From: Styela clava
Lineage: Eukaryota
Direction of reading: 5' to 3'
NCBI RefSeq assembly: GCF_964204865.1
Contig: NC_135260.1
Location: 7,936,001-8,000,000, forward strand
DNA length: 64,000 nucleotides
The notes under the pieces are model-generated. The model searched no databases, was not told the DNA's origin, and worked only from the letters and a program-made list of their open reading frames with translations. Numbering within the stretch: position 1 is the stretch's first letter; every line of letters starts with the position of its first letter. This document shows positions 19,455-61,336 of this stretch, piece by piece. Position numbers and translations under genes: made by a program.

Positions 19455-21632
19455 TTAAACTTTGCTCTCAGATGAATCGGAAGCATCGCCATCCAGAAGT
19501 TCTTGCAAATCAATCATTGATGACATTATTTCCTGCTTATCTTCTTCATCCAATGCATCTGAGATGGTAACGTCATTGATGGCATCTGTCACGATATTGA
19601 GGGCTTTGTCGCGTTTTTTCAATCCGTAATTACAATATGCCAATAGGTACTTATTGTAGAAATTTAAGTATTGCGATATTTCATCGACTTCACCACCTAT
19701 TATATTGTCAATTGTGTGAGAAACATCTGCAGCATCTTGCCAGTTCTCAAGTTCTGTATGTAGAAGAGACATACCAAGTAAAGTAGCGCTTTCGGCGTAC
19801 ATTTTTGCCGTTTTCTCAACGTTTTTTATATCCTTCAAATTAGTTAGTATTTCGTTAGCAAAGGAAACTATGTATGGTCTCAAAGTAGGCAGGTATTGTC
19901 CACCTTCCTTTTGAATTTCACTCGTTGCGCTTGCTATAGAAAACATGCATTCTGCCATTTTAAGTGCTGCGTCATCGGGTGAGAAAGTTTCCACGTCTTC
20001 AACATTTGTTGAACCTTTTTTGAGAGAATTGTCGTCTGTATCCGCGCTTCCTGCCATTTGAACTGCTGCGTCATCGGTGGAAAGCGTTTCCTTCTTTTCA
20101 ACATTTGTCGAGCCTTTTTTAAGAGAATGGTCGCCTGTATCCGCGTTTCTGTTGTTAACACAACAGTCTTCGTCTCTTGGATTTTGGCGTGTTACATTAT
20201 CATCATTAATGATATTCGCGTCAGCCTCACTGAAGGTACCAGTTTTACCGGCTTTGGCTCCTCCGCCTTCACTGTCACGGCTGTCAGACGACAACTTTTC
20301 ATTTACGTCAAAAGTTGTGCTAGAGTCACATTTGCAGACAAGCCAGTACGATACTGCTCTGTATGTTATTATGGCACGAAAATATTTCTTTTCTCTTTCC
20401 CACTCTTCTCCTAAAGCTTGAATTGTATCCATACCAATGCCCGATTGCGATTTTGTGATTTCGTCAAACTTTTCTAACGTTTTTATGAATTCCGTTTCGT
20501 TTCCCGTTCTTGCAAAGTGGTCGGCCGTAGCACCAAGTGTTAAAATTTGACTGTTTTGAAGAGTTTGAAATAGCACGATTTCTCTGATCACTGAAGTAAT
20601 TTATTATATTAAGATTAATTAAAAAATGCATAGGTGATTAAAATATCTGACTTTATTCATTAGAAATCTTTTGTGCCGCGAATATTTCACATTTTGATCA
20701 TGTGGAATTTGAAATTCATGCTAGTCATAATGCGAAATCAAAACATTGAAAATAATATTTACATTTGTCAAAGCTATCTTGCTTATCTTCTTTGTAACAC
20801 TCGACGGATTGTTGTCTTGAAATATTTGGCCTTTTATCTGACGATAAAACAGGATTTTATTCACATACTAAGTATTTTACACGATGTTGATGGATAATGT
20901 TTAGAAGCATTACATGGCTTATAGGGAAGCATTCAGCAGCATGCGCAGTTGGATAACGGTATTAATAGATTGCTGATTGTTTACTAGGCTGCCTATTCAA
21001 ATAATGAAAATAGCAAAACCTGGTGATCGTAATTCAGTAACAAAGCAAATAAAAATTCGATAATGTATTTGTATTCGAATCGAAGGCAGTCGATAAACTT
21101 CATTCCTGCATTACCCATGATCAGTGAATGGTATAACATGACATGCATTCCTAACATTACACTGATTTAATAGTTGAGATTTTAAATAAATTTTGGATTT
21201 TAAATAATATTCAAGTAATATGAATACACTATTTTGTTCATCTTATAGTATAAATTATCAGTGATTCGGTATTGATACCTTATCCGTGTATTATGCAACA
21301 TAGACATAGCATACTAACACGTTGACATACAATATTATAAGCAAATTGTAAATAGCAGGATGTGTGATTCAAATCAAAACTTTCAAAACAGTGATGTTCT
21401 CAATTTATATAGGAATTAACGGATAAAATGATTGTAAGGTGCTGGCCGTAGGGTTTTAATAAAATAATAAAAATTTATACTTACTCATATTATTAACAAT
21501 GCTGACAATCGTTTCAAATATGTTATTTGTACTTCCATGGCCGATTTGTAATTGTAATACAGCTCCCGATGCTACGCTGATATTGGTTTGAAATTGAGAT
21601 TGACTCGGGCCTGGCTGTTCAGACATTGTCAT
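19455..21632 (-). CDS. RHIM-like motif plus helical/TPR-like C-terminal protein, ~452 aa
   Basis: Exons 21632-21485, 20837-20763, 20590-19455 (phase-1 GT-AG introns, 1359 nt in frame). N-terminal NISVASGAVLQLQIGHGSTNNI; 33-aa tandem duplication; C-terminal LAYCNYGLKKRDKALNIV TPR-like helix pair. Confidence 0.72.
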
Positions 21633-21786
21633 ATACTTCAAAGATACTTTATTATCTCTAACTTTTGTTTCCTTGCGATACCACAACGGCCATTTTACGG
21701 ATAAACAATCATTTCACTGACCATGAAAGTCTGCTGATTGCATTGAACTAAATACTTCGACAGAATACCGTTGTAACTGGTGGTAT

Positions 21787-23414: not shown

Positions 23415-24150
23415 GTATACATTGTGAACCTAACAAGTCGTCGATGCGGAACTATACAGGCCCGTACGTTTTGTAAATCATTCACAAATGCCTGTAACGA
23501 GAAAAAGTCATGCCATACCTCGCATTTGGATGTGTTACGGCTACGCTATCCTGACCTAAAGTAACATAGCGCGATATCGCAATAATAACCCACACTATGG
23601 CTGAGCGACTGTGTTATGAGCCAGACTTCAACCCTCAAGTAAACTAGCTAAACTAAATATTAAAAACGCAATGCAAAATTCAAGTACACATTGCTAACTT
23701 TCAAAAGTAATAGGAAGAAATAGGATATTATATATATATATATATTGAAATGCAGGTCCTTTCTCCTTGTCTACTTCCTATTTCGGATCCGTATGTAACC
23801 GCAGCTACAAAGAAACTTGATCTAGTGTATCAAAGTGATGAATAAGAATAAAATAATTTTTGTCCTCGAAATAGCAAGTGCATGGAGGTTATCCTTCGTT
23901 AGGTCTTAGTTGTTTGGTCTGAAGGAGTTAGACCTTCATCTCACGAAAGCTAACGAATACACCTGCTATTTCGTGGAAAGAGATTATGTTATTCTTATTC
24001 ATAGTTAAAGTAGTTAAGTTCCCATCCCAGTCCCATTTTACATCTTCTTGAAATCACTTTAATAGAAACTTCTCATCGACATTGAAGTTCTTCTAGGCAT
24101 GTGATCGTTTTGATACTGCGATAGGCATTGTATGGTACTGACAATTTCTT

Positions 24151-27100
24151 TCATGCCACTCTGTCGACTTTTTTCTTGGCAATTTCAAGATCATTCGTTG
24201 TCAAAACTATAATTTTTTTTTTCTCTTTCTTGCTCCCCCAATCGAGGGCAGTTCGATAAATTTCAAGCGCTTTTCTATATCGTTCCACTGCTTCCTTGAA
24301 CTTTTCCATTCTCTCGTATCCGACCCCAACGTTCAGATAACAAAGTCCGTAAACGTGATGTCCAAGAACTTCTTCCCCAAATTCTCGTTTCATCAAATCA
24401 ATCGCATTTTCGTTTACTGAGACATAGTGTTCGTGATCGCCACAAAAATAATACGCGAGGGCTGTACAGAAGAGGGAACACGCTTCCATTTCGATACGAA
24501 CTTTATGAGTCGAACCTGGTATTGGTTTCTGAAACTCAATCATATCATACATAAACGGGATTAAGTGATTTCGGACAATATTCTTCGATTGTGTATATCT
24601 GATTAATGATTTTGAAATTAGTCTCAAGCCATGAACGCATTCTCTTATTCCACATATTGCTTTGTCCCCGTTGCCACTAACTTCATGCAGTTTGGCAGCG
24701 GCGTAAAATGCAACTGTAGCGTGAAAAAATTTGTTGTTGTTTGTTAATTCTTTTCCCATTATCATGACATCACTCAATTTTGATACGTAAGGTAGCAAAC
24801 CTTTGTGACTTTCTAAATCTTTTAAACGTAAAGAGGCCAGGATGTAACTCATCTTTGCCCAAGCTCCGTTTTCCGTATCCTTGTGGCATCGTTGAAAAGA
24901 AGATATCGCCAATTTGTTCCAAATAATTTTCCAAACTATGAGAATCAGCGGTAACATATTAAGGAATTTTTGTTTCATCGCTGGTGATATAGTTATTTCT
25001 AAAATAATAAAAAAATTGCTCTTCATTAATAAATAACACAATCAATTTAAAAGCAGGATTATAAATATTAATTCATATAAATTTAGCGTAGGCCTATATA
25101 TATATCATCCTATTGTTTTATGATGGAGATAATATCTCGACAGTAAGTTAAGAGTTCATATGTTTACAAAAAAGACATACAATTTTAAATCTTATCAACT
25201 GCTGTACTATGGTGTGGTGTCATCACTTGAAGCCATTTCACTGAGGAATGACAGCTCAAAGTTGTGTTGTGTTGTTGTGATATTTTGTAAAATTATAAAC
25301 TTCAGCAGTAATGTTAGTTACCTTCTTCTTTATATCGTTTGATGAATTCCTTTGCCGAAGTCGATTCCTCGTCGTTTTGGGATAGAATGTAAAAAGACTC
25401 TTGAAGGGATTTGTCGATGCATGGAGCAACATTTCGTTCAGTATCTCCGAGTTTGGTGCTTACATCTGTCTGTGTTGATTTGGTTGCTGCGAATCCCGAT
25501 TCAGTTTGAATCTCCATTGTTGAAACAGACTTTATCGTAGTTTGGGTATGGTTACTTAATCTCAGATTCTGTACAGTCTGAATGTCCTTCTCAAAACTCA
25601 ATTTAATGGATGTCTGCGTTGAGTTGTCTGAAAATGCCGAATCTTGTTTACACAATTTTCGTTTTAAAACAACTTCTTTACAGGTTTGCGTATCACTGTC
25701 AGTTGTTTTTAAACTTGTCTGAGATTTCCTATCTCTCGTGCAAGCGCCATCTGTTTGAGCTTCAGTGTCGTACAAAATTTCTACGGAAGTTTGTATCATT
25801 CTCTCCCGCTTCAGTGTCGGACTTGTTTGGGATTCAATGTCGAACTTTTTTAACGGAACATGTGTTGAAGGACAATCTGAAACCATTTAAAATATTTAAG
25901 GCTGCTATCAATTTTGGCAAATTAAATGAAGAAGAAATCTAGCTAAGATTTCGTTTTTTTTTCTAACTATATTTGTACGTATCAGCGGTTAGCAATCAAA
26001 GAAAAGATACGTAAAATATGAGTGAATTCTGTCCTTACTCGAACAGCAACTTTGTCCCCCACATCTGCTGTTGACAATTTTCTTTGGGTTAGTTCTTCTT
26101 CGAACCCGCCGCCTTGATCTGTTGTTCGTAGATTCTGCATTTTCAGAGTCTTGATAGTGAAAAGATACGAAACATCTAATTATACCATTTATACTAGCAG
26201 TTTTACCCTACAATTTATTGTTATACAGCACCACAAACAGAGCCCGGCGAATTACTTGTTCAGTTAGTCACCCCCATTAAATCAGAAAACTCCGAACGAG
26301 ATGTCGAAAGAGAATAATATATGGAATCCCAAAGTCTTGCTGTATCGGTGTAGCTTCTGTTTGAAATAGTGCTTTCACTTGTTTCACTTTTGGGCACGTT
26401 ATTGGCAAGTGATTTTAGTTAGTTTCCAATACGTTATTTTCTACAGCAATGTCGAAGCTAGTTTTTATATGCTTTTGGAGTAATGGTATTTAATATGATA
26501 AATGTTTTCAGTATCAAAAATATTTTTTGAATATTCTTGATCACACGATCACTGCAAGCAAGTATATTTGCTTTCCATTGGCCTGTGTACTGTATATTAT
26601 GGTTTCCTAAATTTCTAGCGACCGCCCTTTTCGACCAAGAATTCAATTTATTCAGAAATGAATTTTACTTACCACTTCCCGAATCGGTAAAGGTAAAACT
26701 ATCAAGATGGATTTGGAAAACATTGCTCGATTCAGTGTCGGTTGACGATTGTTCTGTAAATAAAATGAGAAATGTCAATATATTCAACATATTGTACTAT
26801 ATATGTTGATTAGATTTCATACTGGTATTCTTTGTTCAAAGTATTGAATGTGTCACTGAAATAATCCAATAGAATTGTGCTTACATTCATATACGGAATT
26901 AGGTATAATCTTAGATACTTGCTAATTCCAGGCTGTATTTCAAGACATATGATGAAAATACACCAGACCTGACTAAGAAAACTTAAAATTGTTATCAATT
27001 TAATTTCCACAGAACAGAAAAACTGAATAAATATTTCTCTATAAACTCAAAAAGGAGATCTACCGTTTTCATGATTATTTATTTCCTTCGGACTGGTGAA

Positions 27101-28584: not shown

Positions 28585-29025
28585 TACAGGGTATTCGCCA
28601 AACACTCTTCCACCACACGAACTATCATCAATAAAGTTTCATTTTAGTTGTACAATACATGCCGGAATGCAAAATATCAAGTACATTTTGTTCTTCACGT
28701 AACTATCTATATTCATGAATATCTGATAACAAAAACTCTTTCAAAAAAGCGGTTGTGCTTCTATTTGCGTCTTACCATGGTGGTGCTGATAACTTTTTAC
28801 GCTTAAACATACAATTCATATGAATATACAACAATTCACAAAGCAATCCTATACGCTTAATGAATTAGTAACCGAGGAAGGTAAAGAAGATGCATGTTAG
28901 TTATCAGACATCGACTTCCTCAACTACAACTCATTTTCTAGGAAAGGTTGCTTACGCCCTACGTGGACCGAAAAGGAGGCCGACAACATCTTTCAAGTGA
29001 GTGATTGACGATGGAGCGGTTTGAG

Positions 29026-30867: not shown

Positions 30868-31950
30868 CTAATTGGCGTTTTTAGCTGTGGGTTATTTTGT
30901 TTCTTAAAATGAAATGTTCATGCAAAATATTGTTTGCCAAATGGATATTTGTTTATCTAAGCTCTTTGTCAAGTCTTAAATCGAACTACAGCACTTATAA
31001 TAAAAAACGGTGTCTTCAACATTTACCTTCGCGTCTTGCTGCTCTTCCATGTCTTCTATTATTTTGCTGATAACGCTGGTAGTAGCGAGTTGAGGAACCT
31101 GGCGAGTCCGAATCATAACCCTCCCATGGCATTCCAACATGAGGAGAACCTGTTTGATAGACTCAGTGCAACAAAACTGTTGTTTCATTTTTACTTTCTT
31201 AATTATTACAAACTTGATGAGAATAGGGATAGCCCACCTCCGATTGATCCAACGTTGGAGTCTCTCAATTCCGTTTTTGACCTATAAATATTATAAAATG
31301 GATATTAGTAACAGCTCTAGGAATTGTGGCTAGAAAAATTAAACTTAAAAACATGTGATTTATATTTTTTATTTATGAAAAAATAAAAAAAATCTTATGC
31401 TGGAATATAACAGTAATATAAGTTCGGCACGTCAAATAGTCTAATTCCTTTAGAAAATGAATTTATAAATAAGAACAGAACTTACTGAACGACATCACCC
31501 TGAAATTTTCCTTGATATACAGGTCCCTGATAATATGTAGTTTGGTGATGATGTACATGGTGCTGCACAATGGTAGGATCATGATCTGATTCACCTTCTA
31601 CATAACGCGTATAGCTTGTGTTTGGTTCGTGCATTCCAGAAACAAAACTTGAATGAGCAATAACTGACATGTTAATCAAGAAAGAATAACATAAATACAA
31701 TCACTATAGATATTAAACCCAATTGCTATTATTTTTCTTGGATTTGCACAAAATTACTACACTGCTATCGGAACAACAATGTTTCCAAAATGAGTAAATG
31801 TTATAATGCTCGTTGTCCGGCACTGTAGATATTTATATCCAGTAAAGTAAATACTACGTCAACGTTATCTTGTTTACAGTAAATCGAATAAATATATTCG
31901 TCAACAGTCTTACAATAGTACGATTGCTTACAGAAATCCAATGAAGACAT
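30868..31950 (-). CDS. Small spliced gene (~134 aa) with a Q/Y/G/H-rich amyloid-like segment; alternatively the 5' exons of the downstream TPR gene
   Basis: Exons 31950-31932, 31663-31486, 31281-31214, 31149-31027, 30884-30868 join in frame (405 nt): MSSLDFF...HHVHHHQTTYYQGPVYQGKFQGDVVQSKTELRDSNVGSIGGG...TRYYQRYQQNNRRHGR. Confidence 0.5.
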
Positions 31951-36500: not shown

Positions 36501-36513
36501 CTAAATAATAATG

Positions 36514-36791: not shown

Positions 36792-38028
36792 CAAATAATA
36801 CAGTGTAAATTGTGAAATCGCCAAATACGTTCCGAACAAGATGGCCGCCTTGTAGACTTTGTAGGTATAGTTGAATTCATCTGTCTGTTACCGGTACCGT
36901 ACCTATTGTTGCCACTGACTTGTAACGTTTGAACGTATCATATCACCATAGGCTACCGGTAAGTTACATCTATTCCGAAACAAATACTGAAATAGCCAAT
37001 TCAGATTTTTACTCTTGGTCGTCGATATATACCGGTACCGGTAAGACGGCGAAACTAACGCAGTGTGTAAGCATGTCGCTGTATACAGGTACGGTACCGG
37101 TACCATTAGATGCTGATGTACACGGTATTTAAAGAATATTTTGGTCTACCAACTACAAGTCTGCTACTGTAACACAAACATGCTCAATCAACGCATGAAA
37201 AGCTACAAAAACCAACCGCCTAAAATAAACATCCACTAACGACAAAGAGCCTCGCTTACCGAGTCCTAATTCCTGAACCAGAAAAAGCGCGGGCTACAGG
37301 CACGTGACATTTGAGTGATGTCATAATTGGCACATTACCGGTACTAAATGACCTATGACGGTAAAGAGAAGGATTAAAATATAGGACACTTTGATCTCTG
37401 CAAAAAGTACCAGTACCGGTACCTCAATATTCAGACCACTACCCGTGGTAAATTCGCAGCTACCGTACAGACCGTTGCTAACACAATCATCAAACTCAGA
37501 CTCACGCTATTGCATACTTAACATACGTACCGCATTCAGTTTTGATACGCACGCAACCGATGCTGAGCTCCCAAACAGCTTAGCGTCCCAGCCGAGATGG
37601 GCAAGGAAACTCGAAATCAAAAATGCTGCGCACGCAACCTGCCTCGTGGAGTTTTTGCGGATGAATTTTTGGACAAATAGGTCCGCTTACTTCCGGAAAA
37701 ATAATATATAAAAACAATATCTTATCTTGTCTAATGCAATAGCAAAACAATCAGAATTTTTGGGTGATGAACCAAAATAATTTTAGAATAAAATTAATTC
37801 AAATTATTACCCAGAGCAAAATTTAGATGAAATTCTAAAGGAGTATTTAAATTTGCTTCGTGACTATATCGCATGCGTAGGTAGATAAATTCGTTTATTG
37901 GAAAGAATAGTTACTCGTAAATTAGAGGATCTTGGATTTTTTTACTTTTTCCAAGTATACTAATCTTTTTACTATTTTTCTGTTATATTAATTACTAACT
38001 GATCAGTGAAATTACTATTCATTAGTAA

Positions 38029-39102
38029 TATAGGCGCCAAATCGGAGTCGCTATCTAGCGCCAACACGCGTTAACGGACGGTTGCTCTCTGAATCGTTTC
38101 GAGACTCCACAATAAAAATACGCGTACAGATTGCCTTTTGAAATTTCTTGTTGTCACGAAAAAGGTACGTTTAAAATGCAGTGTACGTACGATTGAAATT
38201 CAATTACAGTTGAAAGTACGAATCAGTATACAGTTGTCAATTTGTACGGAAGTACGGTTTTCTAAACAGAAATGAAAAACAGTCTCAAAATATGTCACAC
38301 AATAAAACTTACTAAACATCTAACTAATTAGCACTTAAAAAACACAATATTTATCAATTTAGAATCACAAATTAATTGAAAAAGCCAAAAATACAGCACA
38401 ATTGTTTACCTTAAAATATCACTAAATAAAGCATAAAATACGACAAATCAAAGACTTACTTGACGATGTAGCCTTCAACTCAAAGAACAACCAATTATTT
38501 GACTGGAACTATTATTTTAACTAGCTCTATATTTGATCAGATCTAACAAATAAACACACAAAATATCATGAAATAACTACTTGCAACTGTTTTCCTAGCC
38601 TACTGAGAATAACGAACATCTAAACGCGAATAGAGCTGGGAAAGATTCAAAGGTAACTTTTACTAAATATATGACTTAAAAACCCGGTTCCTTGAGACCT
38701 TAAACAACTAAAAATCTAACAAAACTGGAGAGCAGATAATCACTGCCAACATTCCCGCCCAGAAAGCCGCGAGCGAAAGAACGAGCGTTGCCAGAAATAA
38801 GCAACAGCACAAAAAGAGCTGGCCTAGCAACACAGGACAAATTAGCATAATTCTATGTTCTAATTTGTTAACAGTCTGCAAATTGGGGTAGGTTGTCATC
38901 AGAAAAATATCATAAATTACACTAGTAATAAATCCTACTTGAGCAGCATTAAATTTGCCCAATACAAACCTAGAAATAATTACAAAACAATACTAGAAAC
39001 ATGGCAACATCAATGTGTGAGGTTATGTTGCAATCGCAGAATAAGCAAATCACAAAATCAGTCAAGTGTGAAATAAACGAAAACAAATGCGAGGCGGTTT
39101 CA
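38029..39102 (-). repeat. 3' LTR of the BEL/Pao element
   Basis: Direct repeat of 45839-46912; abuts the PPT. Confidence 0.96.
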
Positions 39103-39234
39103 TCCCGGCCCCTTGGAAATTTAAAATTTGCATCCACAAATTTACAAGATTTCCACACACTCAAAACACATCAAACACACTCAACAACCATGCCAGAAAG
39201 AAATTCTTTAAAACGAAATTGAAAAGTTATCAAA

Positions 39235-41955: not shown

Positions 41956-44900
41956 TGATGCGAAATTCTTTCATGGGTTTATTTATGTCGCTGTCTTCCC
42001 ACCAGAAAAATCTAAGATAATTTCTGTGTTTTTCGGGTACCTTCACTTGTAAAAACATTGAGCGAATATCTCCCTGTACAGCAACCACATTTTTGCGAAA
42101 CCTTGACAGAACACCAACCAAGTTATTGGCCAGGTCCGGCCCCTGTAACAGAACGTCGTTAAGGCAGATTCCTTGAAATTTAGATGAGCAGTCAAATACT
42201 ACACGAATTTTCTTCTTTTCAGGGTGATAAACGCCATGATGATTAATATACCAAATTTGACCATCACTTTCAGTAGAATCAGAAACTTCTTCTGCATAGC
42301 CCATAGTTAACATATTTTCCACAAAATCTTTATATTCGGAATAAAAATTTGGATCCCTAATAAATCGACGCTTGAGCGATTCGGTTCGCTGTTTCACTTG
42401 CAAATAATTTGAAGGTAATTTCGAATTTGGATTTATAAATGGCAAATCAATTTCATAGTGTCCGTCATCTTTCAACTTAATAGATTCGCTCACCCTATCA
42501 AGGAACATTTGTTGTCGAGGGGAGATTTCTTCCTTTTCATTATTAGCCGAATCAATGACATCCGTGCACATTTGACACAATGGATGCACTTCATTTTTCA
42601 CAAAATAATTACATGAATTACCTTGATTGTCATTCTTCTTAGGTGGACAACTAATCATCCATCCAGCAACAGTCTTAGATGCAAAATAGTCATGAGGGCC
42701 ATAGGCAACTTCCAAAGGTTTGTGCAATTTAGGATTATCCTTGCCAATTAAAAGACCCACTTCAGATTTAATATTTGGTATAACAACATTCTTAAATTCA
42801 ATAAATTGATCCACGTCCTTTTGAGAGGGAATATCAGATTGCTCAACACCAATTTTATCGTTTGAAAATAATGGCGTCAATGGCACATATTCAGATTCAT
42901 CAAAGTCCGAAATTTCAAGACCTTTCACAATGATACTTTGTTTACTTTCAGTTTCATTATTTATTGTACGAACATTCAAATTTATCTTGAGACCATCAAC
43001 ATTTAACTTGTGCATAAGAGACTCACTTATGAATGAGCAAGTGGAACCATTATCAAAAAATGCGTTTGTCACAATAGCATTTTTGTCACCATTAACACGT
43101 ACTTTAACAGGAATCACATTGAGCAAAACCTTTTCATTTTTAGATGTATTAACAAAAGCATTGAATTTGGTTTCAGTTTCAGGTGTTTGAGAGCCAAAAT
43201 TTTTCAAAACAGGAGATTCATCACCTTTTGTCTCAGAATGATTAATTTGAATTTTGTCTGGAGGATGAAGAACCGTTGTATGTCTTCTCTTGCATCCTTC
43301 AACCTTACAAGGCTTTGTTCGCTTACAGTCTTTGCTCCAGTGACCAGGTTCGAGGCATGAAAAACAAAGCTTTTGGTTCTTGACAAACTTAATTTTATCT
43401 TTGTAGCTCAATTCACGAAATTTAACACATTGATTCAAAAAATGATCTTTATTGCATTTAACACATTTTCGTACAGGCCTATCAACAACTGATGTAGCAA
43501 ATGTTGATCTATAGGGTTTCAGACCTTTCACAGGGTTCGATTGCTTTGGAGGTGAGTTCGAATCATTAGAAGGCAGATTCGTGTTTTCACGAGTTCGTTT
43601 TCGAACATAATTCGCCAAATATTCAACTGTTAAATTCACCTTCTTTTCATTTAAAACGTCATCAACTACAGACAGCCACCCTGCCCTCCAAGAATGAGGC
43701 ATTCTCATGGCCATCTTATCAATTGTCATAATGGATACATTATTATATTCAATTCCTATCAATGTATTCATACAGGACATCAGCTCTGCGGCAAACATTG
43801 TTAGGGCATCTTTATCAGCCAATTTTAAATTAGGACCACAGGAAACTGAATTTATACAAGCTTCCCCTATTTGATATTTTCGTCCATATGTTTCATCAAG
43901 CAACTGAATTGCTTCACTATAACATTCAGATCCACGATGCTGGCAACCTTTGACCAGTGCATGAGCAGGACCCTTTGTATATTTAAGCAAATACACCATT
44001 TTTTCTTTAGGGCTTTGAACTCTACTTCCAATTACAGTGTCAAATATATCCAAAAAATATCTGTACTCCGCAGCATCTCCAGAAAAAGTAGGGGGTTCCG
44101 AAGGTGGTAAACCAAACTGAGGTTGGGGTACATAAATTATTTGAGGGTATGACAAAACTTGATTAGGCATAACAGGCATTTGGGTCACACCTGTCAAAGG
44201 GACATTATTTGACATAGTCACTACCGGTATAGAACTTGCTTTAGGAGCAGTATAGATTGGAATCTGACTAGCATTTGAAATAGGTGAGGTGAATGGTAAA
44301 CTCACACTCATTTCAGGTATTCGAGTCACATTGTTCATAGTACACGCACTCACACTCACCCGGGGAGCTACGGTACTATCATTCAGCATATAAGAACAGG
44401 TAGTAGCCACTTCTGAACTAACATTCAACACATTTCTGGGATTCAATGACCCAGTAGTACAAATTATTTGTTCGGGCACATGAGACACATTCTCAACTGC
44501 AACATCACCACCCATAGTCACACTAACATTTTGTGGATTGCAAATTTCAATTTCAGAGGTAGGAATAACCGACTCACCATTTTCCCCGGCGATTGTCCTC
44601 TTTCTACTCATGGTACTCAACATATTCGTTCTGGTGACTTGTGTGATCTGCGGTTGTGAAAATTGTGCAGTTGTTACAGGTAACATTACAGGTGCATTTT
44701 TTATATCGGGTTCAGGTTCTGATGGTGTAGTTACAGAATTTTGTGTCGATTGTTGATTAGTAGTATCATTAGCAATAACAGCAGATGGGGATTTATTAAC
44801 AATTATCCCACTTTCTGCTAAAGTTTCATTAAAGTCCATGTCCAATCCCAGCAGTTCTCGTCGACTTCTGTCTTCGATTTCTTGCAGGGTTCTTTGTTTA

Positions 44901-45757
44901 CGTCGATCGAATGTAACGTTTTCGATCTTTCTTTTTTGTTGTATTTCCTGGCGACGACGCATAAATGCTTCTCGCTTACGTTGGTTTCCAATTCTAATTT
45001 CTTCCTCTTGACGTTGCTTTTCGTGCCTCAATTCTTCTTCTTGACGTTGCTTTTCTTTTTTCAATTCTTCTTCTTGACGTTGTTTTTCTTTTCTTAATTC
45101 TTCCTCCTCAACTTGTTGTTGTTGCAGGAGTTCTTGCCACTCCTTTTCCAGTGTCAAGTCTTCAATTTGGTTATTTTCTTCCCAAATTTCTTTTTCTTGT
45201 TGCAACCGGTTACCGAGCTGTTGTTTCTCTAGCTCAGTTTTTCTTTGCTGACTTATTTTTCGTGCTTCATAGATGTTTTCTATTTGCGACTCACTAAAAG
45301 CTGATTTTTGTGACTGGACAACAGATGTTGATCGATAACTTGCACTACGAAACGTTTTCAAGCTTCTTCTTTTTGAATTTCTTGACAAACAATCCCGAGT
45401 TAAAACAGTTGATTTCTTTTGTTTCACCTTTGATCTTGTGGTCATTACATGTGTGTTTGTTGACATTTCTTCAGCAACACAAGATGCTACAGACTTCTCT
45501 TTATTAGTGCTCTTTCGCGAACTTAGGTGAGAAACTGAATCCACATCAGGTATTCTTAGGAACAAGTCTTTACTCACACCACTAGAATGATCACTCACAA
45601 CATTTTCACTTGCCAATGCAAGACTTGATTTAGGTTGAGTTTCAACTGACATTGCAATTATTGTTGTTTCATGAACGTCTGATTTTGCAGAACCGTCATT
45701 TGTTGTTGAATCATCTTCATTGTCCTTGACATTTAAGTGAGCATCAGCCGTTGCCAT
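41915..45757 (-). CDS. BEL/Pao Gag-protease-RT N-terminal part
   Basis: 1280-aa ORF with coiled-coil EEELRKEKQRQ repeats, three Cys/His knuckles (CVKC..H..C, CFSC..H..C, C..C..H..H), protease FFDNGS, KIRVVFDCS and LLQGPDL. Confidence 0.93.
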   Translation of the reverse strand: MATADAHLNVKDNEDDSTTNDGSAKSDVHETTIIAMSVETQPKSSLALASENVVSDHSSGVSKDLFLRIPDVDSVSHLSSRKSTNKEKSVASCVAEEMSTNTHVMTTRSKVKQKKSTVLTRDCLSRNSKRRSLKTFRSASYRSTSVVQSQKSAFSESQIENIYEARKISQQRKTELEKQQLGNRLQQEKEIWEENNQIEDLTLEKEWQELLQQQQVEEEELRKEKQRQEEELKKEKQRQEEELRHEKQRQEEEIRIGNQRKREAFMRRRQEIQQKRKIENVTFDRRKQRTLQEIEDRSRRELLGLDMDFNETLAESGIIVNKSPSAVIANDTTNQQSTQNSVTTPSEPEPDIKNAPVMLPVTTAQFSQPQITQVTRTNMLSTMSRKRTIAGENGESVIPTSEIEICNPQNVSVTMGGDVAVENVSHVPEQIICTTGSLNPRNVLNVSSEVATTCSYMLNDSTVAPRVSVSACTMNNVTRIPEMSVSLPFTSPISNASQIPIYTAPKASSIPVVTMSNNVPLTGVTQMPVMPNQVLSYPQIIYVPQPQFGLPPSEPPTFSGDAAEYRYFLDIFDTVIGSRVQSPKEKMVYLLKYTKGPAHALVKGCQHRGSECYSEAIQLLDETYGRKYQIGEACINSVSCGPNLKLADKDALTMFAAELMSCMNTLIGIEYNNVSIMTIDKMAMRMPHSWRAGWLSVVDDVLNEKKVNLTVEYLANYVRKRTRENTNLPSNDSNSPPKQSNPVKGLKPYRSTFATSVVDRPVRKCVKCNKDHFLNQCVKFRELSYKDKIKFVKNQKLCFSCLEPGHWSKDCKRTKPCKVEGCKRRHTTVLHPPDKIQINHSETKGDESPVLKNFGSQTPETETKFNAFVNTSKNEKVLLNVIPVKVRVNGDKNAIVTNAFFDNGSTCSFISESLMHKLNVDGLKINLNVRTINNETESKQSIIVKGLEISDFDESEYVPLTPLFSNDKIGVEQSDIPSQKDVDQFIEFKNVVIPNIKSEVGLLIGKDNPKLHKPLEVAYGPHDYFASKTVAGWMISCPPKKNDNQGNSCNYFVKNEVHPLCQMCTDVIDSANNEKEEISPRQQMFLDRVSESIKLKDDGHYEIDLPFINPNSKLPSNYLQVKQRTESLKRRFIRDPNFYSEYKDFVENMLTMGYAEEVSDSTESDGQIWYINHHGVYHPEKKKIRVVFDCSSKFQGICLNDVLLQGPDLANNLVGVLSRFRKNVVAVQGDIRSMFLQVKVPEKHRNYLRFFWWEDSDINKPMKEFRISLSIWNGLQPKLL

Positions 45758-45838
45758 TTTTATTTAACTTCAACCAGGCAACTTCAGAATTAATGTCCAA
45801 TTTTCCTTTCAGCTTTTGTGCAAACGTCAAAAAACTTA

Positions 45839-46912
45839 TATAGGCGCCAAATCGAAGTCGCTATCTAGCGCCAACACGCGTTAACGGACGGTTGCTCTCT
45901 GAATCGTTTCGAGACTCCACAATAAAAATACGCGTACAGATTGCCTTTTGAAATTTCTTGTTGTCACGAAAAAGGTACGTTTAAAATGCAGTGTACGTAC
46001 GATTGAAATTCAATTACAGTTGAAAGTACGAATCAGTATACAGTTGTCAATTTGTACGGAAATACGGTTTTCTAAACAGAAATGAAAAACAGTCTCAAAA
46101 TATGTCACACAATAAAACTTACTAAACATCTAACTAATTAGCACTTAAAAAACACAATATTTATCAATTTAGAATCACAAATTAATTGAAAAAGCCAAAA
46201 ATACAGCACAATTGTTTACCTTAAAATATCACTAAATAAAGCATAAAATACGACAAATCAAAGACTTACTTGACGATGTAGCCTTCAACTCAAAGAACAA
46301 CCAATTATTTGACTGGAACTATTATTTTAACTAGCTCTATATTTGATCAGATCTAACAAATAAACACACAAAATATCATGAAATAACTACTTGCAACTGT
46401 TTTCCTAGCCTACTGAGAATAACGAACATCTAAACGCGAATAGAGCTGGGAAAGATTCAAAGGTAACTTTTACTAAATATATGACTTAAAAACCCGGTTC
46501 CTTGAGACCTTAAACAACTAAAAATCTAACAAAACTGGAGAGCAGATAATCACTGCCAACATTCCCGCCCAGAAAGCCGCGAGCGAAAGAACGAGCGTTG
46601 CCAGAAATAAGCAACAGCACAAAAAGAGCTGGCCTAGCAACACAGGACAAATTAGCATAATTCTATGTTCTAATTTGTTAACAGTCTGCAAATTGGGGTA
46701 GGTTGTCATCAGAAAAATATCATAAATTACACTAGTAATAAACCCTACTTGAGCAGCATTAAATTTGCCCAATACAAACCTAGAAATAATTACAAAACAA
46801 TACTAGAAACATGGCAACATCAATGTGTGAGGTTATGTTGCAATCGCAGAATAAGCAAATCACAAAATCAGTCAAGTGTGAAATAAACGAAAACAAATGC
46901 GAGGCGGTTTCA
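45839..46912 (-). repeat. 5' LTR of the BEL/Pao element
   Basis: Direct repeat of 38029-39102. Confidence 0.96.
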
Positions 46913-48661: not shown

Positions 48662-51600
48662 TCATACTTCACAAATGTAATAAAAGTATCTGGAACAAGA
48701 TATGTCGTTGATATCGTTTAGTTTAGTCAAATGAGCACATTTTTCATCTCCTTCTTCGTTGTTCGGCTCATTTTCACCCCAGGCTGTGGAGTTCATATCG
48801 TATAGGCCCCCATCCGACCACGCCCACTCATTGTCTTGAGACGTTCTATCTAATCCAATCCAAGAATAAACAGAAGTGGTTTTGACATTTTCCTCGATCT
48901 CCCTAAAATATTAGACATACTAGTAAATAGTACATATCTGATTGAATTTGTCTTTTATTACAAATATATTTTTAAAGTACATATGGAAAACAACAACTAA
49001 CATTCTACACGAATCAAATACTTTCTTTGCCATTTATGACAACAAAATTGCAAAAGGGTTTATTTTAACTTTACGTATATGAACGAAATAAATTTGTGTT
49101 TTAACGGAAAAGCAAACTCGTCCGGGCATTTAGTTCTTAATTACGCGAGAGTCAAGGCTTTGCAGTTAAATATCACCAGTAATTTCGTTCCTGCAAGCCC
49201 GATACGCTAATAGCAGAAGTACAATCGCTTTTAAAAATGATTGCTAATTTACTTGCTAAAAATGGTAACAATCAAAATACCAAATCATGCATACTTTCTT
49301 ATTTTTGAATCACGAATACCAGTCGATTCCAGTCGAGCTCCAAATTTTTCACATTCTGCCTTCGAGTTCACGTAGTTTCTTGATCTTTCCGACTGCTTGT
49401 AGAAGTGAGAATTACTGGCCGCGTACCATCCATTCAGTATATATGTATCTTTTACTAGATGGTGAACTCTTTCCGATTGACTTTTCTGTAATTTTGTATG
49501 AAACAAAATTGCTTTAGAAATATAAAAAAACATTGAAGAAAACTATGGAACAATAATACATTTAACAACATATCACATTATCGAACGGGAGCACAACATC
49601 TCGCGTCATACTTTCACTTCTTCCATACCTCCGCGTGTTCGCGTTTTGTACGATTAGTAATATCTTCATGGGGGTTAGGCCTAAAAGTTTTTATGCGTTT
49701 ATTGAATTTATTTTTCAAATATTTATAATGATTAATATTTTTAGAAGATAGGTCTCTAATTCAGATCTTGTCTCGCACAACTATGATGTTATTTATAATG
49801 ATGTTAGAACGTGTTTTTATGTCCTATCTGCATCACAATTCATACTTCTGTGAATATAAGGAAGTATGTTTTGAATGAATTTTGAAAACAAGTTTTAAAA
49901 TTGAATGAGCATTTTTAAATCAGATTGCGCGCAGAAAATTAGTGTATCATACGGGATACTTTCAGGATATTGCATAATAGCATAATAGAGGAGCGTGTAT
50001 CTATTCTACAGCATTCATGAAAAATGATAAGCACGAATTTGGCCTATCGTATTCCAATTTAAGGGTAATGCATAATGGCATAACAAACATTCTTATATTA
50101 TAGAAGATTTGTTATTTAAAAAATGTTCTGTTTCTGTGTTACAAATTCACGATTTTTCATTAATACTTTTTAGCTATTATTCGAGTGTTTCTGACCTCAC
50201 TTTGAGCAAGCATGTATACTCAACTGAATTGTTGAAAAATGATTCAAGATCAATCAGACGATTGTCATGTTGTTCCAACTTTCTTCCCAGAACCCAAGAA
50301 ACGTTCGAGATCGATAGATTCATTTCTAAATCAGAAAAAGTTATAATTAAAACGACACTGTAAAACAGTTTCTTTTATTCAGTCTGAGAAGCCATTGCAA
50401 TTCTGATCGACAGGCGGATTCTTGGTGTACTGAACAATTTGAATAAACTCGATATTTTCTTATTCAATGAGTTCTTTGTTGGTATTTCTAATTCGAAAAT
50501 ATTCTCTATTCCTGATCTAATGTGATGACACTGTGTGACACAATTTTTTTTCCTGACATCTATTTTTATTTTCTAATAGATTACGCGCCAAAACCTAACA
50601 AAATGACATTAATAAAAAGAATATTGATTGATTTTAGGTTTCCTTGGTTCCAAAATTTTATTTAACATGTATTTGTATTAATTCTTACATAGTATACAAG
50701 GAAAAGTTTTCCGGGATATCAAAAATAATAAAGAAAAAGCACCAGACTATGTTATAACCAAAGATTTATACGATTTTATGTTATCATTTTAAACAAAAAC
50801 CGGATTTCGAGGAAGTCTCTCAATTTTCCCAAAACCAAATTTAAAAAATGAGAAATGTGAGTTTATAAATGCAGGAAATATATGTGAAAAGCTGAAAACG
50901 AAGCAAATCGTTTTGTGTCTCAGTGTAATTAGAGTCTTGTCCGTAGATTTTCAAGATTCAAAAAAAGAATAATTGAATGTTAAAAAAATAAAATAAAAGT
51001 CATCATATACCATGGAATTGATCTCTATTTTTGGAGTCTTCTTTGTCGATAACATTGTGGAGATTTGCAATTGCGGCGTACAATTCAGCATTGACAACAA
51101 AACAGACGACGATCAGCACAATAAATAGGACAGTTAACGACGTAATCCCTAACAAGATCAGTTTTTGTTTCTGAAACTTGTGTTTGACAACATTTTGTGA
51201 TGATCGGCGATTAACTGAAATATACACGAGATAATTTACTTTATAAATGCAACGCATTAACTTCGACGAGCCAGTCTATTGATTCAAAGAATTCAAAGAT
51301 TTTTCGGATAGGAATGCAATACTATTCTATGGTAATGTGTTGACTAAGTTAAACCCCCATTATGGCATTGAAGCTGATGATTAAATGGTTTAAACCAAGG
51401 TTCCATTAGTCATCTTGGCTCCTTCAGTACAGCAAGTTTTCATCCGAATCCGAGAGTGAGTATTAATATATGTGTACTGTTTAAATATATTTAAATACCT
51501 ATTAGGTTAGCCATTATTATTCAGCTTGCTACACGTGGAAAATAATTTTGTTTTACCAGTATTAGGTTTTGCACATATAAATATATAGCTTATAAAGTTC

Positions 51601-52066
51601 TTCTTATAGCCTTACAGGTATTGCACATGGGTTCCTCGAGTCTCTGGAATGTTTTATTGGGATTTCGTTCCACCAAAAAGGTTAAAAACCACTAATATAA
51701 ATTTGTTTTAAAAGGTTTAGGCGTGCTGCTGATCTTCAAACTGGAAATGTGCACTCAGGCATTGTTTGCTATAAACCCCTAACTACGGGCATGTTGCAAC
51801 TATATGAACATCTGTTGCAACTATATGAACCTATATTGCACCTGCATTTTTTTACAACTTTTCCCTCAGTACCCACAACACTTGCAAATGAAGATTTGGG
51901 GTTCATTGCGAGAAAATATGTATGAGAAAATAGAGTTTGTTTGCTAAAGTGTTAGACTTTTAAACGTGTTACCTTCGTTATACTCTTCATAATCATTCCG
52001 TGGTGGTGGTAACGGAAGCTCCAGTTCATATACATTAGCTATTTCAACTTGAGTTTTTGTAGCCAT
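48662..52066 (-). CDS. Type II transmembrane C-type lectin receptor (EPN motif), ~284 aa
   Basis: Exons 52066-51973, 51214-51011 (TM LILLGITSLTVLFIVLIVVCFVV), 50325-50201, 49485-49295, 48902-48662 (WIGL, WAWSDG, WGENEPNN, KCAHL, INDISC, YICE). Total 855 nt in frame. Confidence 0.88.
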
Positions 52067-53538
52067 CTGCATCAAACAATGTAGCGTATTGCACATAAAT
52101 GATCAATTTAAAAAATATTACTATCTAAAACTTGACAACATTTCACTTCTGTTGTGCGAAGATTGTACTCAATGGTACCTGCTCTGTGAAAAAGCTATTT
52201 GACTTATTGTCTTCAAGTGACAACTAAATATTCAATTTATGACTCACAAGTCATGTTATAAAATTGGCTAATTTCATGTGGTATGTCGTAATACGTGGGA
52301 GCACCGTAGGTAATGTGTATTATATATGGTAAAGTGCATCTGATTTGAAGGTGGTATAATCAATTTCTATAAAACAGAAATAACTGTATACAAATTTTGA
52401 ATCGCATGATGTCGAAATATTTACCACAAACGTAAAGAGTGGGCGTGCTACTGTTCAAATAGAAAGTGTTTTCATTTACTGACCTCATTGAATTATGCGC
52501 ACAAAGTTAAAATTCCAGTTTGCATAACTGATTAATTTAAACATGACTGATTTAAACTTAGGTAAAAATGAATATATACTCAAGATTTTTGCATCCTGTC
52601 AGAATACAAATAATTGAAATTCATATCTGTATTTGTTAAATTAGACCAAATGTTATTCATTTACCATTTTTATATAATCTAATTTCGTATTATCCTACAG
52701 CAATTTTTCGCACGCAATCAGGCACAATTTTGCTCTAGTTGACGATCTTGCGATTGACTGAATTTACTTGCAAAGCTTTCGACGTTTTGAAATTTGATCA
52801 ATCTCTCTCCTTTGACTACAGGCAAAATATGGCATTTATTGTTAAAGTATTTTAACACCCACCTATCAAAGAAAATGCATAAATACTTGTAATGTCAGTC
52901 AGTTACTTCACTACTCCGAATCTTTTTGATTTTGGAACGGGTGATATGGCAGTGGCTCTCAACCGGGGGCCCAAGTTCCAGGGGGGCTACGACACAAGGC
53001 TAATAATTGATCATGAGGCGACTTTGTTTGCATAATTTCTTTCTAAAATCAAATTTCCGTTCACCGCTTTTTCATTACCTAACTAGGTTATTTGCGATCA
53101 CTGGGTATATTCACTTTCTTGTGCGTGAATTGTTTGATCATAATGGAATTTGGAATCCACCAATCAAAACAGTTCGCTGGTAGGCCGTCTAACCTGCAGC
53201 CGGGCGATTTCATCAAACTGCGAGATAACTTTCGCTATCGTATTATAGACGCAATATCCCATATGTAAATTCATAATCATCGTTGGCTTTACCAAAGTAA
53301 CTCGAGATGACAGAGAATGTGTTCAATGCCTGCATTACTCGTATGTATTGTGCAATGAATCATTACGTTCACCTAAACTCCAAAAGTGAAATGACAAAAA
53401 TCATACGCAGGTTAAAGACTTTGTCACAACCTATTTGTGCGAATCTGTTTTTTTTTTTCTGATCTTGTTAGCATCAAAAGCGTCTCCAGTTTGACAGTGA
53501 CATTCGTCTGGCTATATCAATGACGGTCCCTAGAAGGC

Positions 53539-53641
53539 GCTCCCGAAGTATGTGCACCAAGATGGCGCACAACCTGAACCCTAACCTGGTACAACCACTG
53601 TGTTCAGGTTGTGCGCCATCTTGGTGCACATACTTCTGAAG
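53539..53641. mobile_element. Palindromic MITE copy
   Basis: GAAGTATGTGCACCAAGATGGCGCACAACCTGAAC mirrored. Confidence 0.8.
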
Positions 53642-53653
53642 GTCCCCCTAGAA

Positions 53654-57456: not shown

Positions 57457-58187
57457 TAGATATTTATTGCGTAATGTCCAAAAAAAAATATTTATCCATA
57501 TACAAAACCTCCATCTCTAGGGTGATTGTATGTCATTGTAAAGGTATTTTGAAGATTGATATAGTTTATCGTGAAATCGACATTGCTTTTGTTTCAGAAT
57601 ACAATTTCTACGATTTGTTCAAAGCAAACAGCAATGCTCAGTTATTTCAAAATAAATCAAACTTCGTTTTGAAAGTAAAGACATGGAAACTAAAGAATCA
57701 AGCAAAGAAAGGACGAGAATACCGTCGGCACTGCCCGAAAAAAAGAATTCAAACCTTGAAAGTGGGCGAATAAATTTTCACACATTTCTCCTTTTTTTGA
57801 CTAATAGCTGTGTTCTGCATACTATATGATGTTCGGTAAATTGAAAATAAAAATAACTTAACTCTAATGCAATGGTATCAGGTATAGACCAAGTTATTAT
57901 TCAGCATATTTACGGCAAGAAGATTTGCTTAAATAACTATAAGATTCTTCCAATAAGATATGAACATAATGGATATAGCGTACAGAGACGCTCGGTTTTC
58001 CGAGATTTTCACATTCAGCAAAAGCAAGGTTCTTGCGTAGACCCAAACAGAGTTGAAGTAAAAACAGTAAAATGTCATATTACTTGGTTAAAAAAATAAT
58101 AAAATACTACTACCCAAATACTAAATAAAAGTCTGTTGCTAAACTTAATTTTTTATCTCAACAGTTCCAATACCGGATAGCAGCACG

Positions 58188-61100
58188 ATGGAAAATATTG
58201 AAAATAAAATAGAATTGGAAGATATTAAAGTCACTGAAAAGAAAAATACCGCTGTATCACCGGAAACAGAAAGCCCTTTTGATGGCCAAGAAATTGCACT
58301 GTCAGGTGGTGTAATTGAAACGCTTCAGATTGTGAAACAAACCAACATAGAAGGTAATATAAAACTCATATTCAAATAAGGGAGCAATGCTCAAATATAG
58401 GGACACGAAGATCGAATGAATAGGTCAAACAGTCCAAGATAAAATGACTTATTTTAAACGTCGTTATTGCAGACATCGTTGTTGTGATGTCAAATTTACT
58501 AAAAGAGATTTTTAATCGGTTACAAAAACTTGTGTGTTTGCTATAGAAATACCCTAATGACATATGCTGCATTTTAGTCCAAAAATACTACATGGAATTC
58601 CCATCTCAGGCTACGAAACATTCAACGTTAGTCGAAGCCATATTCGTGTTTTTCTATGTGTATCTTTGCATTTATGCTTAAATTTCATATTCTTTGACAA
58701 ATGAGACTGAGGGACATAACTTGGCGCTTGTGCATTCTAACGCTGAGTGCGCAATACAAGCGGCCGACAAATGGGATGGAGACGGTCACGCTTGACAGAA
58801 TTAAAAAAGTGTTCCCATGAACTGGAATTAAAATAGCAAGATTTTGTGTAAAATATCGAGTTTCACGGGCCTCAGTCTTTTGATAACTTTTTCGATTTTT
58901 AATTGAGTACCTCCTCAAATTCAAAATTGATTATTTCATTAGCTGGGAGGATTTTCCTCAATGAAAATTTTGCTCAAACTACAAGTCTAATAACAACAAC
59001 AACGATTTGAAAAAAACTATATGCCAAAAGTCATTAATGAGCACGAAGTGAATTCTTTTTGCTAAAGTGTTGCTGTTGGTATTCTTGTTCCTTAAGGGGT
59101 TGTGGAAATTTCATTCTTCTCAGCGAAAAAAAATATGAATAGTAAATATCAAATATTGTTTCAGAATTTGCTTCCACACATGTTGTTGCTGACCATGGTA
59201 ACATTGAAACAGTTGAAGCAATCGTGTCGGCCGAATCCGCAAATGTTGCGGCTGAGGAAGTGGCCTTGACAGCCAAGGAGGCAGTAATAAACGCAGAAAA
59301 CCTGCATCAAACTAATATCAATGGTACGGCATCAAGATATTATTAAATTGTTGTACTGTCTACAACACTAAAAAGGAGTTCTCAACTTTCGCCATGCAAA
59401 TAGGAACTGATTATAATATTATTGTCCAATTCCGGACTGCCAATTCTGTCTAATAACCCAATCTTTACCAGAGAAAACTGATCGTCACTAAATACCAACT
59501 CGGTATATGGACCAGATAGTATTTAGGTCCAAATATTATAACAATAGCTGTATCTGCTCTTGCATGTATTAAACATACGTCATGGAAGATTGGCGATGTA
59601 CCGTATTCCCAGTATTTTACATTTTTAACATTTTTTTCCCTTTAACTTAAACGGAATTTCATACTTGTTTACAAAATTTTTAAAAAAAAAGTCATTCATA
59701 AACTCCTTTTTTTATTTGAGTTTAGAAACCAACTTTGTTGATGCTGAAATAAACAATATGGCGGTGCAAAATCTCAACATCCATATCCATCCAGGTGCGT
59801 ATATATTAATAATTAATTTATTATAAATAACTATTTAAATGAAGGGGTTTTTAGATTTAAACTCGAAACATATATTTTAAAATTGACATGTTTCCTTCTC
59901 ACAATACAATACTCAGTTGTGATAATTCCCCTTGAGTGGACGCGAATGTATTTCAGGATGTTATACTTTCTTTGTACAGTATATGATATATTTGTAATTT
60001 CCGAGATGTATTTACTTTACTTGAAGAGTGTATTAAAAACCAAAGAAAAGGAGAACAAACTCAGAATGTAATGGGTCATAACGTATCTTTGATACTGTGT
60101 TCTGAGAATTTCTGTTACATTCTGTCAAATCTGTCATCATGATTTTGCTTACATTCATTTTTGACCACATGTCTATAATCGAAGCTAATTGCGGTTAAGG
60201 TTTTGCATGAATCAAAAATATTACAAATTTTTACTTTAGCATTCAAATATTTGGTACAATATCAAGTTTTCGAAATATTTTTAGCCCCAGTACCAGCACC
60301 TGCAGCATCTTTACAATCTGATGATTTCATTGAAGCTGACTCTTGTCCCTTTGATTTTACTTCGGCAACAGAACGACAAAAGACAACAGGTTGGCTTTAA
60401 ACTAATATCGTAACTACTGTGCTCTTGTTATTTTAAAACTAATTCCATGGTTGGGAATGCAAATCTTTTGCCAACATTTTCAATATAGTGTGCAATGGTT
60501 ACCACGTCGCCAAAGGTTTTTCAAGCCAAAATTCAATTTAATTTTTATCGACTTTCAATGGCAATGAATACACTTAATAGTAATTTGAGAACTGTTGAAG
60601 TGGATAATAAGTATATCGGATAGAGATGTATGGAAAAATCTATGGCACAAAATTAGGTACTCCCGAGGTATGTGAACCAATATGGCGGACACCGGAACGT
60701 AGTATGTGTACCAGGTTATGGCCAGGCCATAATTTCAGGTACAAATACTATGGGAGTCACACGGCTAGTCCTCGAACTCACAATAGAACTAAAATAAGGA
60801 AAATTATACATTCGTTTACTGAAGACGACAAAAGGTGTGTCTGATTTCATATGCAGGTTGTTATCATGTATATTTTTTGAAATTATTATTCTGAAAAATA
60901 CAGCGATATTGGCTTGGCTTAGAGTCATGGAATTCGTAAGAATAAGCGCAATGCAATGAATCATATGTCAGCACAAAATGATGTTTTCGAAAGCTTCTCA
61001 AACATAAGGAAGTATGATTCATGTGAATAAAATCTGCACTCTTTGCAAAGTATACCATAGTAACTCACTGACTCGTGAAATTTCTTTCCGTTTGTTATTT

Positions 61101-61336
61101 TTTGCGAAGTTTGAACACATTCAGAGGATTGACTTTTTAAAAGCAATGTTGCACTCAATGTTATTTTGTTTAGTTATCACAAAACCCTAAATCTAAATTA
61201 GCACGAGCAGATAATGCATGATTTTTGTAAATTTATATTCCGGCCCACAGATTTTCTCATGACATTTTTTTTATTCTAACAGTTAATCAAGTTACTCCTT
61301 CATCGAAGCAGCAGACAGCTTTTAGACAAGAGCCAG
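58188..61336 (+). CDS. 5' exons of an uncharacterised gene with a repetitive beta-rich N-terminus; probably continues beyond the window
   Basis: Exons 58188-58353, 59165-59323, 59726-59794, 60285-60389, 61283-61336; all introns phase 1, frame open throughout, no stop reached. Confidence 0.68.
60660..60800. mobile_element. Partial long-form MITE copy
   Basis: Matches the left arm and middle of 16557-16778. Confidence 0.7.

Follow-up and report, generated by a model that had tools for sequence, protein, structure and literature searches.

We analysed a window of 64,000 nt of the Styela clava genome (NC_135260.1; C14:7936001-8000000 in our numbering), in which an initial annotation had described three neighbouring genes, here called A, B and C, as a cluster for amyloid-based innate signalling. 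Gene C is the 5' end of a predicted NLR gene (for a receptor with NACHT plus leucine-rich repeats, LRRs) that runs beyond the window. The repeats at the N-terminus of gene C may form, in the position of a death domain, a beta-sheet self-assembly module that is predicted to act as a signalling handle; we put the probability of this reading at about 0.45. The initial observation was confirmed in part, and its interpretation, which had centred on tetratricopeptide repeat (TPR) scaffolds, was partly supported and is redirected to the heads of NLRs. The motifs themselves were recovered: LQIG at 21551, YYQG at 31535 and NVGSIG at 31256 on the minus strand, and IETLQI/QTNI at 58314-58338 and 59308 on the plus strand. 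All lie on GT-AG exons. The gene B motif is split over two exons by a phase-2 intron and is not confined to a single phase-1 exon. Genome-wide searches refer to the 377-Mb S. clava genome.

RefSeq models gene C as a protein of 1271 aa (XP_077974073.1), with seven N-terminal introns that are all of phase 1. On the plus strand, the first coding exon (57683..57761) is followed by exon 2 (58165..58353), which ends in the stretch GGVIETLQIVKQTNIE, by exon 3 (59165..59323), which holds one unit of repeat family 1 with an internal period of 7 residues, and by exon 4 (59726..59794), a terminal unit common to paralogous NLRs. These three exons and the linker exons downstream of them (60285-60389, 61283-61336 and 62991-63026) are all of phase 1-1. 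The exons assigned to gene C by the initial annotation are real, but they belong to a longer gene, whose NACHT exon lies outside the window, 1.6 kb downstream of its end (65602-67074 in extended coordinates). This exon matches the Pfam NACHT domain at E 1.7e-17, with intact Walker A (GQAGSGKT) and Walker B (FFFDGLDQ) motifs. It is followed by LRR-type exons of 53-56 codons in phase 0. These gave no Pfam LRR match on P0001 at E 0.001; paralogues of gene C match LRR_6, and the predicted fold of one paralogue is a confident strand-helix array. Judged by its sequence, gene C is an NLR and no TPR gene, and in this respect the proposed innate-immune context was borne out.

At least 151 sites in the genome match the NACHT domain of gene C. 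About 50 NACHT genes of near-equal frame length and score are spaced at intervals of ~100 kb in C2:25000-8100000. Among 14 non-redundant NLR N-termini, 13 were of the repeat or motif type and one carried tandem death domains. The head of these 13 NLRs is a short beta-prone motif in place of a folded domain, as in amyloid-motif NLRs. NLR-linked amyloid signalling has been described in fungi, bacteria and archaea. Each repeat unit corresponds to one symmetric phase-1 exon, and copy number varies widely: many NLRs have a single short unit, RefSeq models hold up to 15 units, an array of 33 family-1 exons precedes one NACHT, and arrays of at least 21, 40, 20 and 28 family-2 exons precede four others (lower bounds, with 150 of the 212 candidates scored). 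The proportion of nonsynonymous differences (pN) was well below that of synonymous differences (pS) when exon 3 of gene C was compared with four paralogous exons (pN 0.32-0.38, pS 0.61-0.90), and pN/pS was 0.35, 0.31 and 0.68 for three sets of NLR repeat exons. By these ratios, the repeat exons are under purifying selection.

The repeat heads are interchangeable with death domains and have moved between NACHT clades. In a NACHT tree of 25 proteins (P0017 included, no row dropped), gene C grouped with the death-domain NLR P0002 (support 91/90, not starred). P0017 combines a family-3 head of the C1/C10 type with a NACHT of the C8 type (support 100/99), and its head exons lie physically upstream on the DNA. 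Moreover, a four-exon family-3 head, 82-97% identical to that of P0017, lies directly upstream of a distant-clade FN3-NACHT gene (C13:17445267-17462730, L211-L213). Because of these two cases, the shuffling of N-terminal modules on phase-1 exons that had been suggested is real among NLR heads; it was not supported for the heads of TPR proteins, as described below for gene B.

The composition of the repeats is compatible with beta structure. They contain 0-1% Pro and 30-37% V+I+T, are also rich in Asn and Gln, and are acidic. Hydrophobic residues recur with a period of 2.4-2.7, and helical power was 0.59-0.89 of the mean, compared with 1.28 in a helical control. A complex predictor given three copies of gene C residues 66-168 returned a score of 0.00, which speaks neither for nor against assembly. 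A search of PDB sequences with the repeat profiles gave nothing under E 0.45, and two repeat regions submitted to the ESM Atlas had no usable match, which is uninformative. The tetrad of the RHIM core G-phi-Q-phi-G (RHIM, RIP homotypic interaction motif) is absent from the motifs of genes B and C.

A beta-prone motif is also conserved at the N-terminus of gene B. On the minus strand, its first motif exon (31486..31670; HHVHHH..YYQGPVYQG..GDVV) ends in phase 2, and the second (SKTELRDSNVGSIGG; 31238..31281) is of phase 2-1. Low-complexity linker exons of phase 1-1, mapped from RefSeq XP_039274023.1, come next (31027-31149, 28396-28551, 27706-27807, 27064-27171, 26673-26753, 26039-26149 and 25322-25876), and the terminal exon (24151..24998) encodes an ascidian TPR-like helical domain that scores 27.8 bits against TPR_12, under the cut-off of 30.1. 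The older RefSeq model (770 aa) has the YYQG exons as modelled here and the newer one (688 aa) begins downstream of them; public contigs cover parts of 25362-25872, and the four runs gave no coverage of the motif exons, a result that counts neither for nor against them. Gene A ends in a member of the same family, so that two genes with a C-terminal TPR-like domain are present, as had been proposed. The domain is a single C-terminal exon of helical repeats in both genes, other family members exceed the TPR cut-offs, the gene B exon has 129 matches in the genome, and the family also occurs in Ciona. The Ciona member P0037 (XP_026692798.1) has a beta-prone N-terminus that is not significant against the motif matrix. 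A putative death-domain-like phase-1 exon was seen upstream of a divergent TPR-family exon (L097:5244-5450).

Full-length relatives came from a profile search; a word-based protein search for paralogues of similar length gave none among 675 candidates, and exon guesses upstream of TPR exons in 40 stretches were too noisy, many of these stretches ending before the N-terminus. The YYQG-type motif occurred in 10 of the 35 family proteins with >30 N-terminal residues, namely the nine from which the profile was built and gene B, which that nine-protein profile found independently (E 1.7e-17). It is the best-conserved part of the gene B N-terminus: the motif tile scored 88-156 against five paralogues, and ten other N-terminal tiles scored 24-71. 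As in the repeat exons of gene C, pN (0.21-0.31) was below pS (0.73-1.03), in line with the suggestion of constrained beta-prone modules in both genes. The phase-2 intron occupies the same position within the motif in gene B, in near paralogues and in three distant subfamilies that are ~20% identical in the TPR domain. Since distant subfamilies share both exons and this intron, the motif was inherited with the TPR family, and lost or left unannotated in many members, rather than swapped between TPR scaffolds as had been envisaged. The first half of the motif may resemble the bacterial amyloid signalling sequences (BASS) and insect motifs.

Candidate signalling partners were sought among caspases. 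The search gave 40 matches, of which 30 were retrieved, and 15 caspases were examined with a matrix of NLR motifs. Five intact single-exon caspases lack a death-fold prodomain, retain SHG and QxCRG (the His-Cys dyad) and begin with a short beta-prone stretch, as do two broken copies; in a quick tree, the caspases without death fold fell into two clades. In the group at C1:28.9-29.27 Mb (L142, L143, L154, L178 and L179, caspases and two broken copies), the N-terminal 20 residues are similar to the TPR-family motif in its second half, and one broken copy shares 8 of 11 residues with the TPR protein P0059. Between caspase genes there, an open frame of 676 codons (C1:29248574-29250601, minus strand) looks by eye like a secreted or envelope-type glycoprotein. 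At C1:24230001-24290000 (L110, L185-L187), a TPR-family gene is embedded among prodomain-less caspases and fragments and partly co-duplicated with them; an apparent caspase-TPR fusion at C1:24.26 Mb resolved into separate genes on closer inspection. The death-domain caspases L138 and L184 (C6:18.83-18.84 Mb) have one or two beta-prone segments of the type I-x-V-x-G-K-N-A-x-G-I between the death and protease domains, which may be reminiscent of RHIM. In caspases L148 and L155, the N-terminal region is long and, by eye, similar to ZU5.

If the repeats do form a self-assembly module, NLR biology suggests how it might operate. Ligand binding would lead to oligomerisation of the NACHT domains, which would gather the disordered repeats and nucleate a beta-solenoid or cross-beta stack. 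In the weakest step, the stack might recruit proteins that bear a short motif of a related kind. Candidates are the death-fold-less caspases with an intact His-Cys dyad, together with TPR-like proteins of the gene B type as possible adaptors or brakes. Taken to its full extent, this would be an amyloid inflammasome in which 1-40 beta-rungs on NLRs template the N-terminal motif of caspases, TPR-like proteins with the same motif act as adaptors or brakes, and the firing threshold is tuned by the number of rungs; we regard this extended version as tentative and are inclined to doubt it.

Some results link the three families. With the NLR matrix, gene C scored 11.5, L142 11.5, L143 10.6, L154 4.8, gene B 3.7 and gene A 2.3 (shuffle P 0.006 for L142 and 0.004 for L143; 1 of 1820 background 40-mers reached 10), and two death-domain caspases also scored, inside long prodomains. 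A second matrix, from six paralogous TPR motifs, gave 20.5 for gene B, 14.9 for TPR protein P0053, 14.7 for NLR P0018 and 12.4 for caspase L142; the levels of P0018 and L142 were reached by 0 and 1 of 164,923 control windows, in a control set that is mostly helical and hence flatters the result.

Several observations weigh against a self-assembly module with caspase partners. The joining of the N-terminal exons of gene C to its NACHT, and that of the long arrays, comes from annotation only. The repeats carry a net charge of -78 over 490 aa, and such strong acidity argues against simple in-register stacking. Structure prediction, which had been suggested as a check, yielded no beta fold: AlphaFold2 modelled a single repeat exon of gene C in isolation as one helix (predicted local distance difference test, pLDDT, 83) and gave no fold for the four repeats of a paralogue modelled at full length (pLDDT about 25). 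The latter result is not decisive, because the monomer of an amyloid motif would also be disordered. Likewise, the suggested profile search for RHIM and amyloid motifs matched neither RHIM nor a fungal amyloid-motif family of Pfam in any protein scanned. The NLR matrix was built from eight paralogous motifs around a seed pattern chosen by eye. The TPR matrix gave a false positive, the death-domain helix of caspases L150 and L153 (11.6-11.7), and missed gene C (3.6) and gene A (-3.6). In unseeded pairwise tests, none of eight caspase heads matched the NLR motifs significantly (P 0.19-0.99), and one of eight matched TPR N-termini at P 0.005, marginal after correction; as a positive control, all five death-domain caspases found the death-domain NLR (P 0.02-0.085). 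A full-length hidden Markov model of the TPR motif failed to pick up NLRs or caspases (best E 0.26), and no close copies of the three NLR repeat families were found in non-NACHT genes of the genome. Matches to these three families lay upstream of a listed NACHT in 98 of 103, 148 of 150 (of 212 candidates) and 19 of 20 cases, and the remainder were orphan exons, exons before LRR-like exons, one match at noise level, or the FN3-NACHT gene. The similarity of the short caspase motifs to those of NLRs and TPR proteins is borderline. Because the pairwise tests were null, the matrices had false positives and close copies were lacking, the shared core hydrophobic-x-D/G-S-x-I-G-x-I is a lead rather than a result.

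Two other explanations account for part of these data. The repeats might be disordered, low-complexity spacers that multiplied as phase-1 exons were duplicated in tandem and that are kept only for frame and composition, with a likeness between families that is due to chance among beta-prone sequences. The low pLDDT of the repeats fits this idea, as do the many other low-complexity phase-1 exons in the same genes, the borderline cross-family tests with their false positives, and the lack of the motif in 25 of the 35 TPR-family N-termini. However, it sits poorly with a pN well under pS, with repeats that alternate in position with death domains, and with a gene B motif that is conserved far above its flanks and keeps a fixed intron across distant subfamilies; we consider it unlikely. 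It is also improbable, in our judgement, that the repeats fold into a rod of finite length, whether a coiled stalk, a trimeric beta-helix or a long monomeric beta-solenoid, and serve as spacer, oligomeriser or ligand bait while templated amyloid signalling plays no part. Arrays with 20-40 units that are nearly identical do far exceed the microbial motifs of 21-40 residues in the available account (PMC12261475), the repeats have internal periods of 7 and 8 residues, one unit was modelled as a helix, the weak PDB match at E 0.45 was to a phage tail needle, and no effector with a close copy was found. Yet helical periodicity is depleted in the repeats, many NLRs have a single short unit, and a rod leaves unexplained why caspases and TPR proteins carry short motifs that are related.

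The version put forward by the initial annotation, in which A, B and C make up a single cluster of RHIM type whose TPR scaffolds swap polymerisation motifs, is very improbable. It draws on the LQIG tetrad of gene A, which lies in an expressed exon, and on a span of 60 kb that contains an NLR together with two TPR-like and two lectin genes. In gene A, on the minus strand, the LQIG stretch is part of the first coding exon (21485..21632, phase 1). Next come a 75-nt exon of phase 1-1 (20763..20837) that was absent from the initial annotation, and a terminal exon (19455..20590) encoding a divergent TPR-like member with an acidic insertion, homologous to the gene B family (hhalign probability 93%, E 2.8e-7; rank 2 in the window search, E 0.0013). 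With the 75-nt exon, the frame is open over 452 aa. Public runs, none of them on record as RNA, supported this structure: spliced contigs from three studies contained the joint 20590/20763 in four of four public runs and 20837/21485 in three of four. Contigs of two runs also join 21782 to 23415, which may represent a 5' untranslated exon or an effect of a 430-bp block duplicated upstream of gene A (21787-22218 and 22944-23368, 97.7% identical).

A RHIM identity for the LQIG stretch was rejected. It lacks the leading Gly of the core, has no Pfam RHIM score and no PDB match, and such a tetrad turns up in 2.5% of shuffles of this exon. The first exon has no paralogue in the genome, and none of 35 TPR-family N-termini and none of 14 from NLRs had the tetrad. 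Conservation of motif exons among paralogues was seen for genes B and C but not for gene A. Pfam RHIM (PF12721) had no match in the exons of the window and none above the cut-off genome-wide among 10 candidates scored; this profile is short and, according to the available part of PMC4262963, can miss true RHIMs. The LQIG stretch is beta-prone, with no evidence of a RHIM. Nor was a functional cluster of the three genes supported. Their motifs are unlike each other (P 0.44-0.64), and among 48 close-clade NLRs only gene C has a TPR-family gene within 50 kb, with 0.89 expected (assuming the size of one contig), so that at this distance no genome-wide linkage beyond expectation was found. At 500 kb, 14 of the 48 had such neighbours, compared with 6.6 expected (P 0.09). 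By these two comparisons, the adjacency of NLR and effector known from amyloid signalling is absent from the window. Genes A, B and C belong to families that are dispersed in the genome and make up no dedicated sensor-effector cassette.

The surroundings are immune-rich, not a demonstrated unit. The three genes do share the window, but the starts of B and C are 26 kb apart, with a long terminal repeat (LTR) retrotransposon and a C-type lectin gene between them. The retrotransposon (38028..46912, minus strand), which we take by eye to be BEL/Pao, has two long open frames and lies outside the system; its 1075-bp terminal repeats are 99.7% identical, so it is a recent insertion. The lectin genes reported nearby were both detected: a fibrinogen-domain gene (9761..15526, minus strand; Pfam Fibrinogen_C, E 2e-30) and the C-type lectin gene (48662..52102, minus strand; Pfam Lectin_C, E 7.6e-14). 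Each has a hydrophobic segment, a Tyr-containing N-terminal exon and an approximate 5' limit; both resemble type II membrane proteins whose cytoplasmic exons contain Tyr. A DEAD-box helicase has exons at 6312-7787 (plus strand). Its label eIF4A, like BEL/Pao, FN3 and ZU5, was assigned by eye, with no family search behind it.

In receptor-side architecture, the S. clava system appears to resemble NLR amyloid signalling of fungi and bacteria; it departs from it in gene adjacency, its effector motif is a candidate, and it falls outside the RHIM family. As in the fungal pairs NWD2/HET-S, FNT1/HELLF and PNT1/HELLP, as far as described in the available part of PMC7889193, a short beta-prone motif of ~20-35 residues stands at the N-terminus of a NACHT receptor with no folded N-terminal domain. 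In contrast to that account, in S. clava no effector gene next to the NLR bears a motif that matches and no HeLo-type effector was identified, the units form exon arrays of up to 40, and the candidate partner motif is at the N-terminus of caspases. Bacterial BASS likewise comprise diverse families of NLR N-terminal motifs, some linked to caspase-like CHAT domains, but in the parts available (bioRxiv 10.1101/2020.01.06.895854) cross-seeding pairs are adjacent and 43-56% identical over the motif, whereas the likeness between NLRs and caspases in S. clava is short and not significant. RHIMs and cryptic RHIMs (RIPK1, RIPK3, ZBP1, TRIF, PGRP-LC/LE and Imd) are, in the sections available of PMC4262963 and PMC13506858, similarly non-globular, in the position of a death fold, with disordered flanks and sometimes in tandem. 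Unlike RHIMs, the motifs of genes B and C lack G-phi-Q-phi-G and a Pfam RHIM score, and copy numbers in S. clava are far higher. In amphioxus, RHIMs stand in the usual position of death-fold domains, with a predicted RHIM-NACHT protein (BF82280), and tunicates appear to lack RHIMs, according to the accessible part of PMC4262963; likewise, the accessible part of PMC12119088 reports no RIPK1 homologue in tunicates. Ascidian NLRs, as far as the portion available of PMC11508797 describes them, have no N-terminal domain, and those with death domains are called NLRD. The S. clava genes share the NACHT-LRR core, and the clade of gene C includes a death-domain version (P0002). Compared with that description, the seemingly empty N-terminus holds a conserved repeat module that domain libraries leave unannotated. 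We found no paper describing these repeats in the literature searched, which mostly did not include subscription journals.

Tunicates are reported to be without RHIMs, and ascidian NLRs without an N-terminal domain; a repeat module that is conserved, shuffled and present on dozens of ascidian NLRs fills this gap. Short peptides would allow an inexpensive test of the module. If the repeats template caspases, amyloid signalling would extend to an animal NLR-caspase pair, and the natural series of 1-40 units would allow us to ask how seed length sets a switch. Should the amyloid inflammasome prove true, NLR-to-caspase amyloid signalling would exist in the sister group of vertebrates, based on motifs that are unrelated or only distantly related to RHIM.

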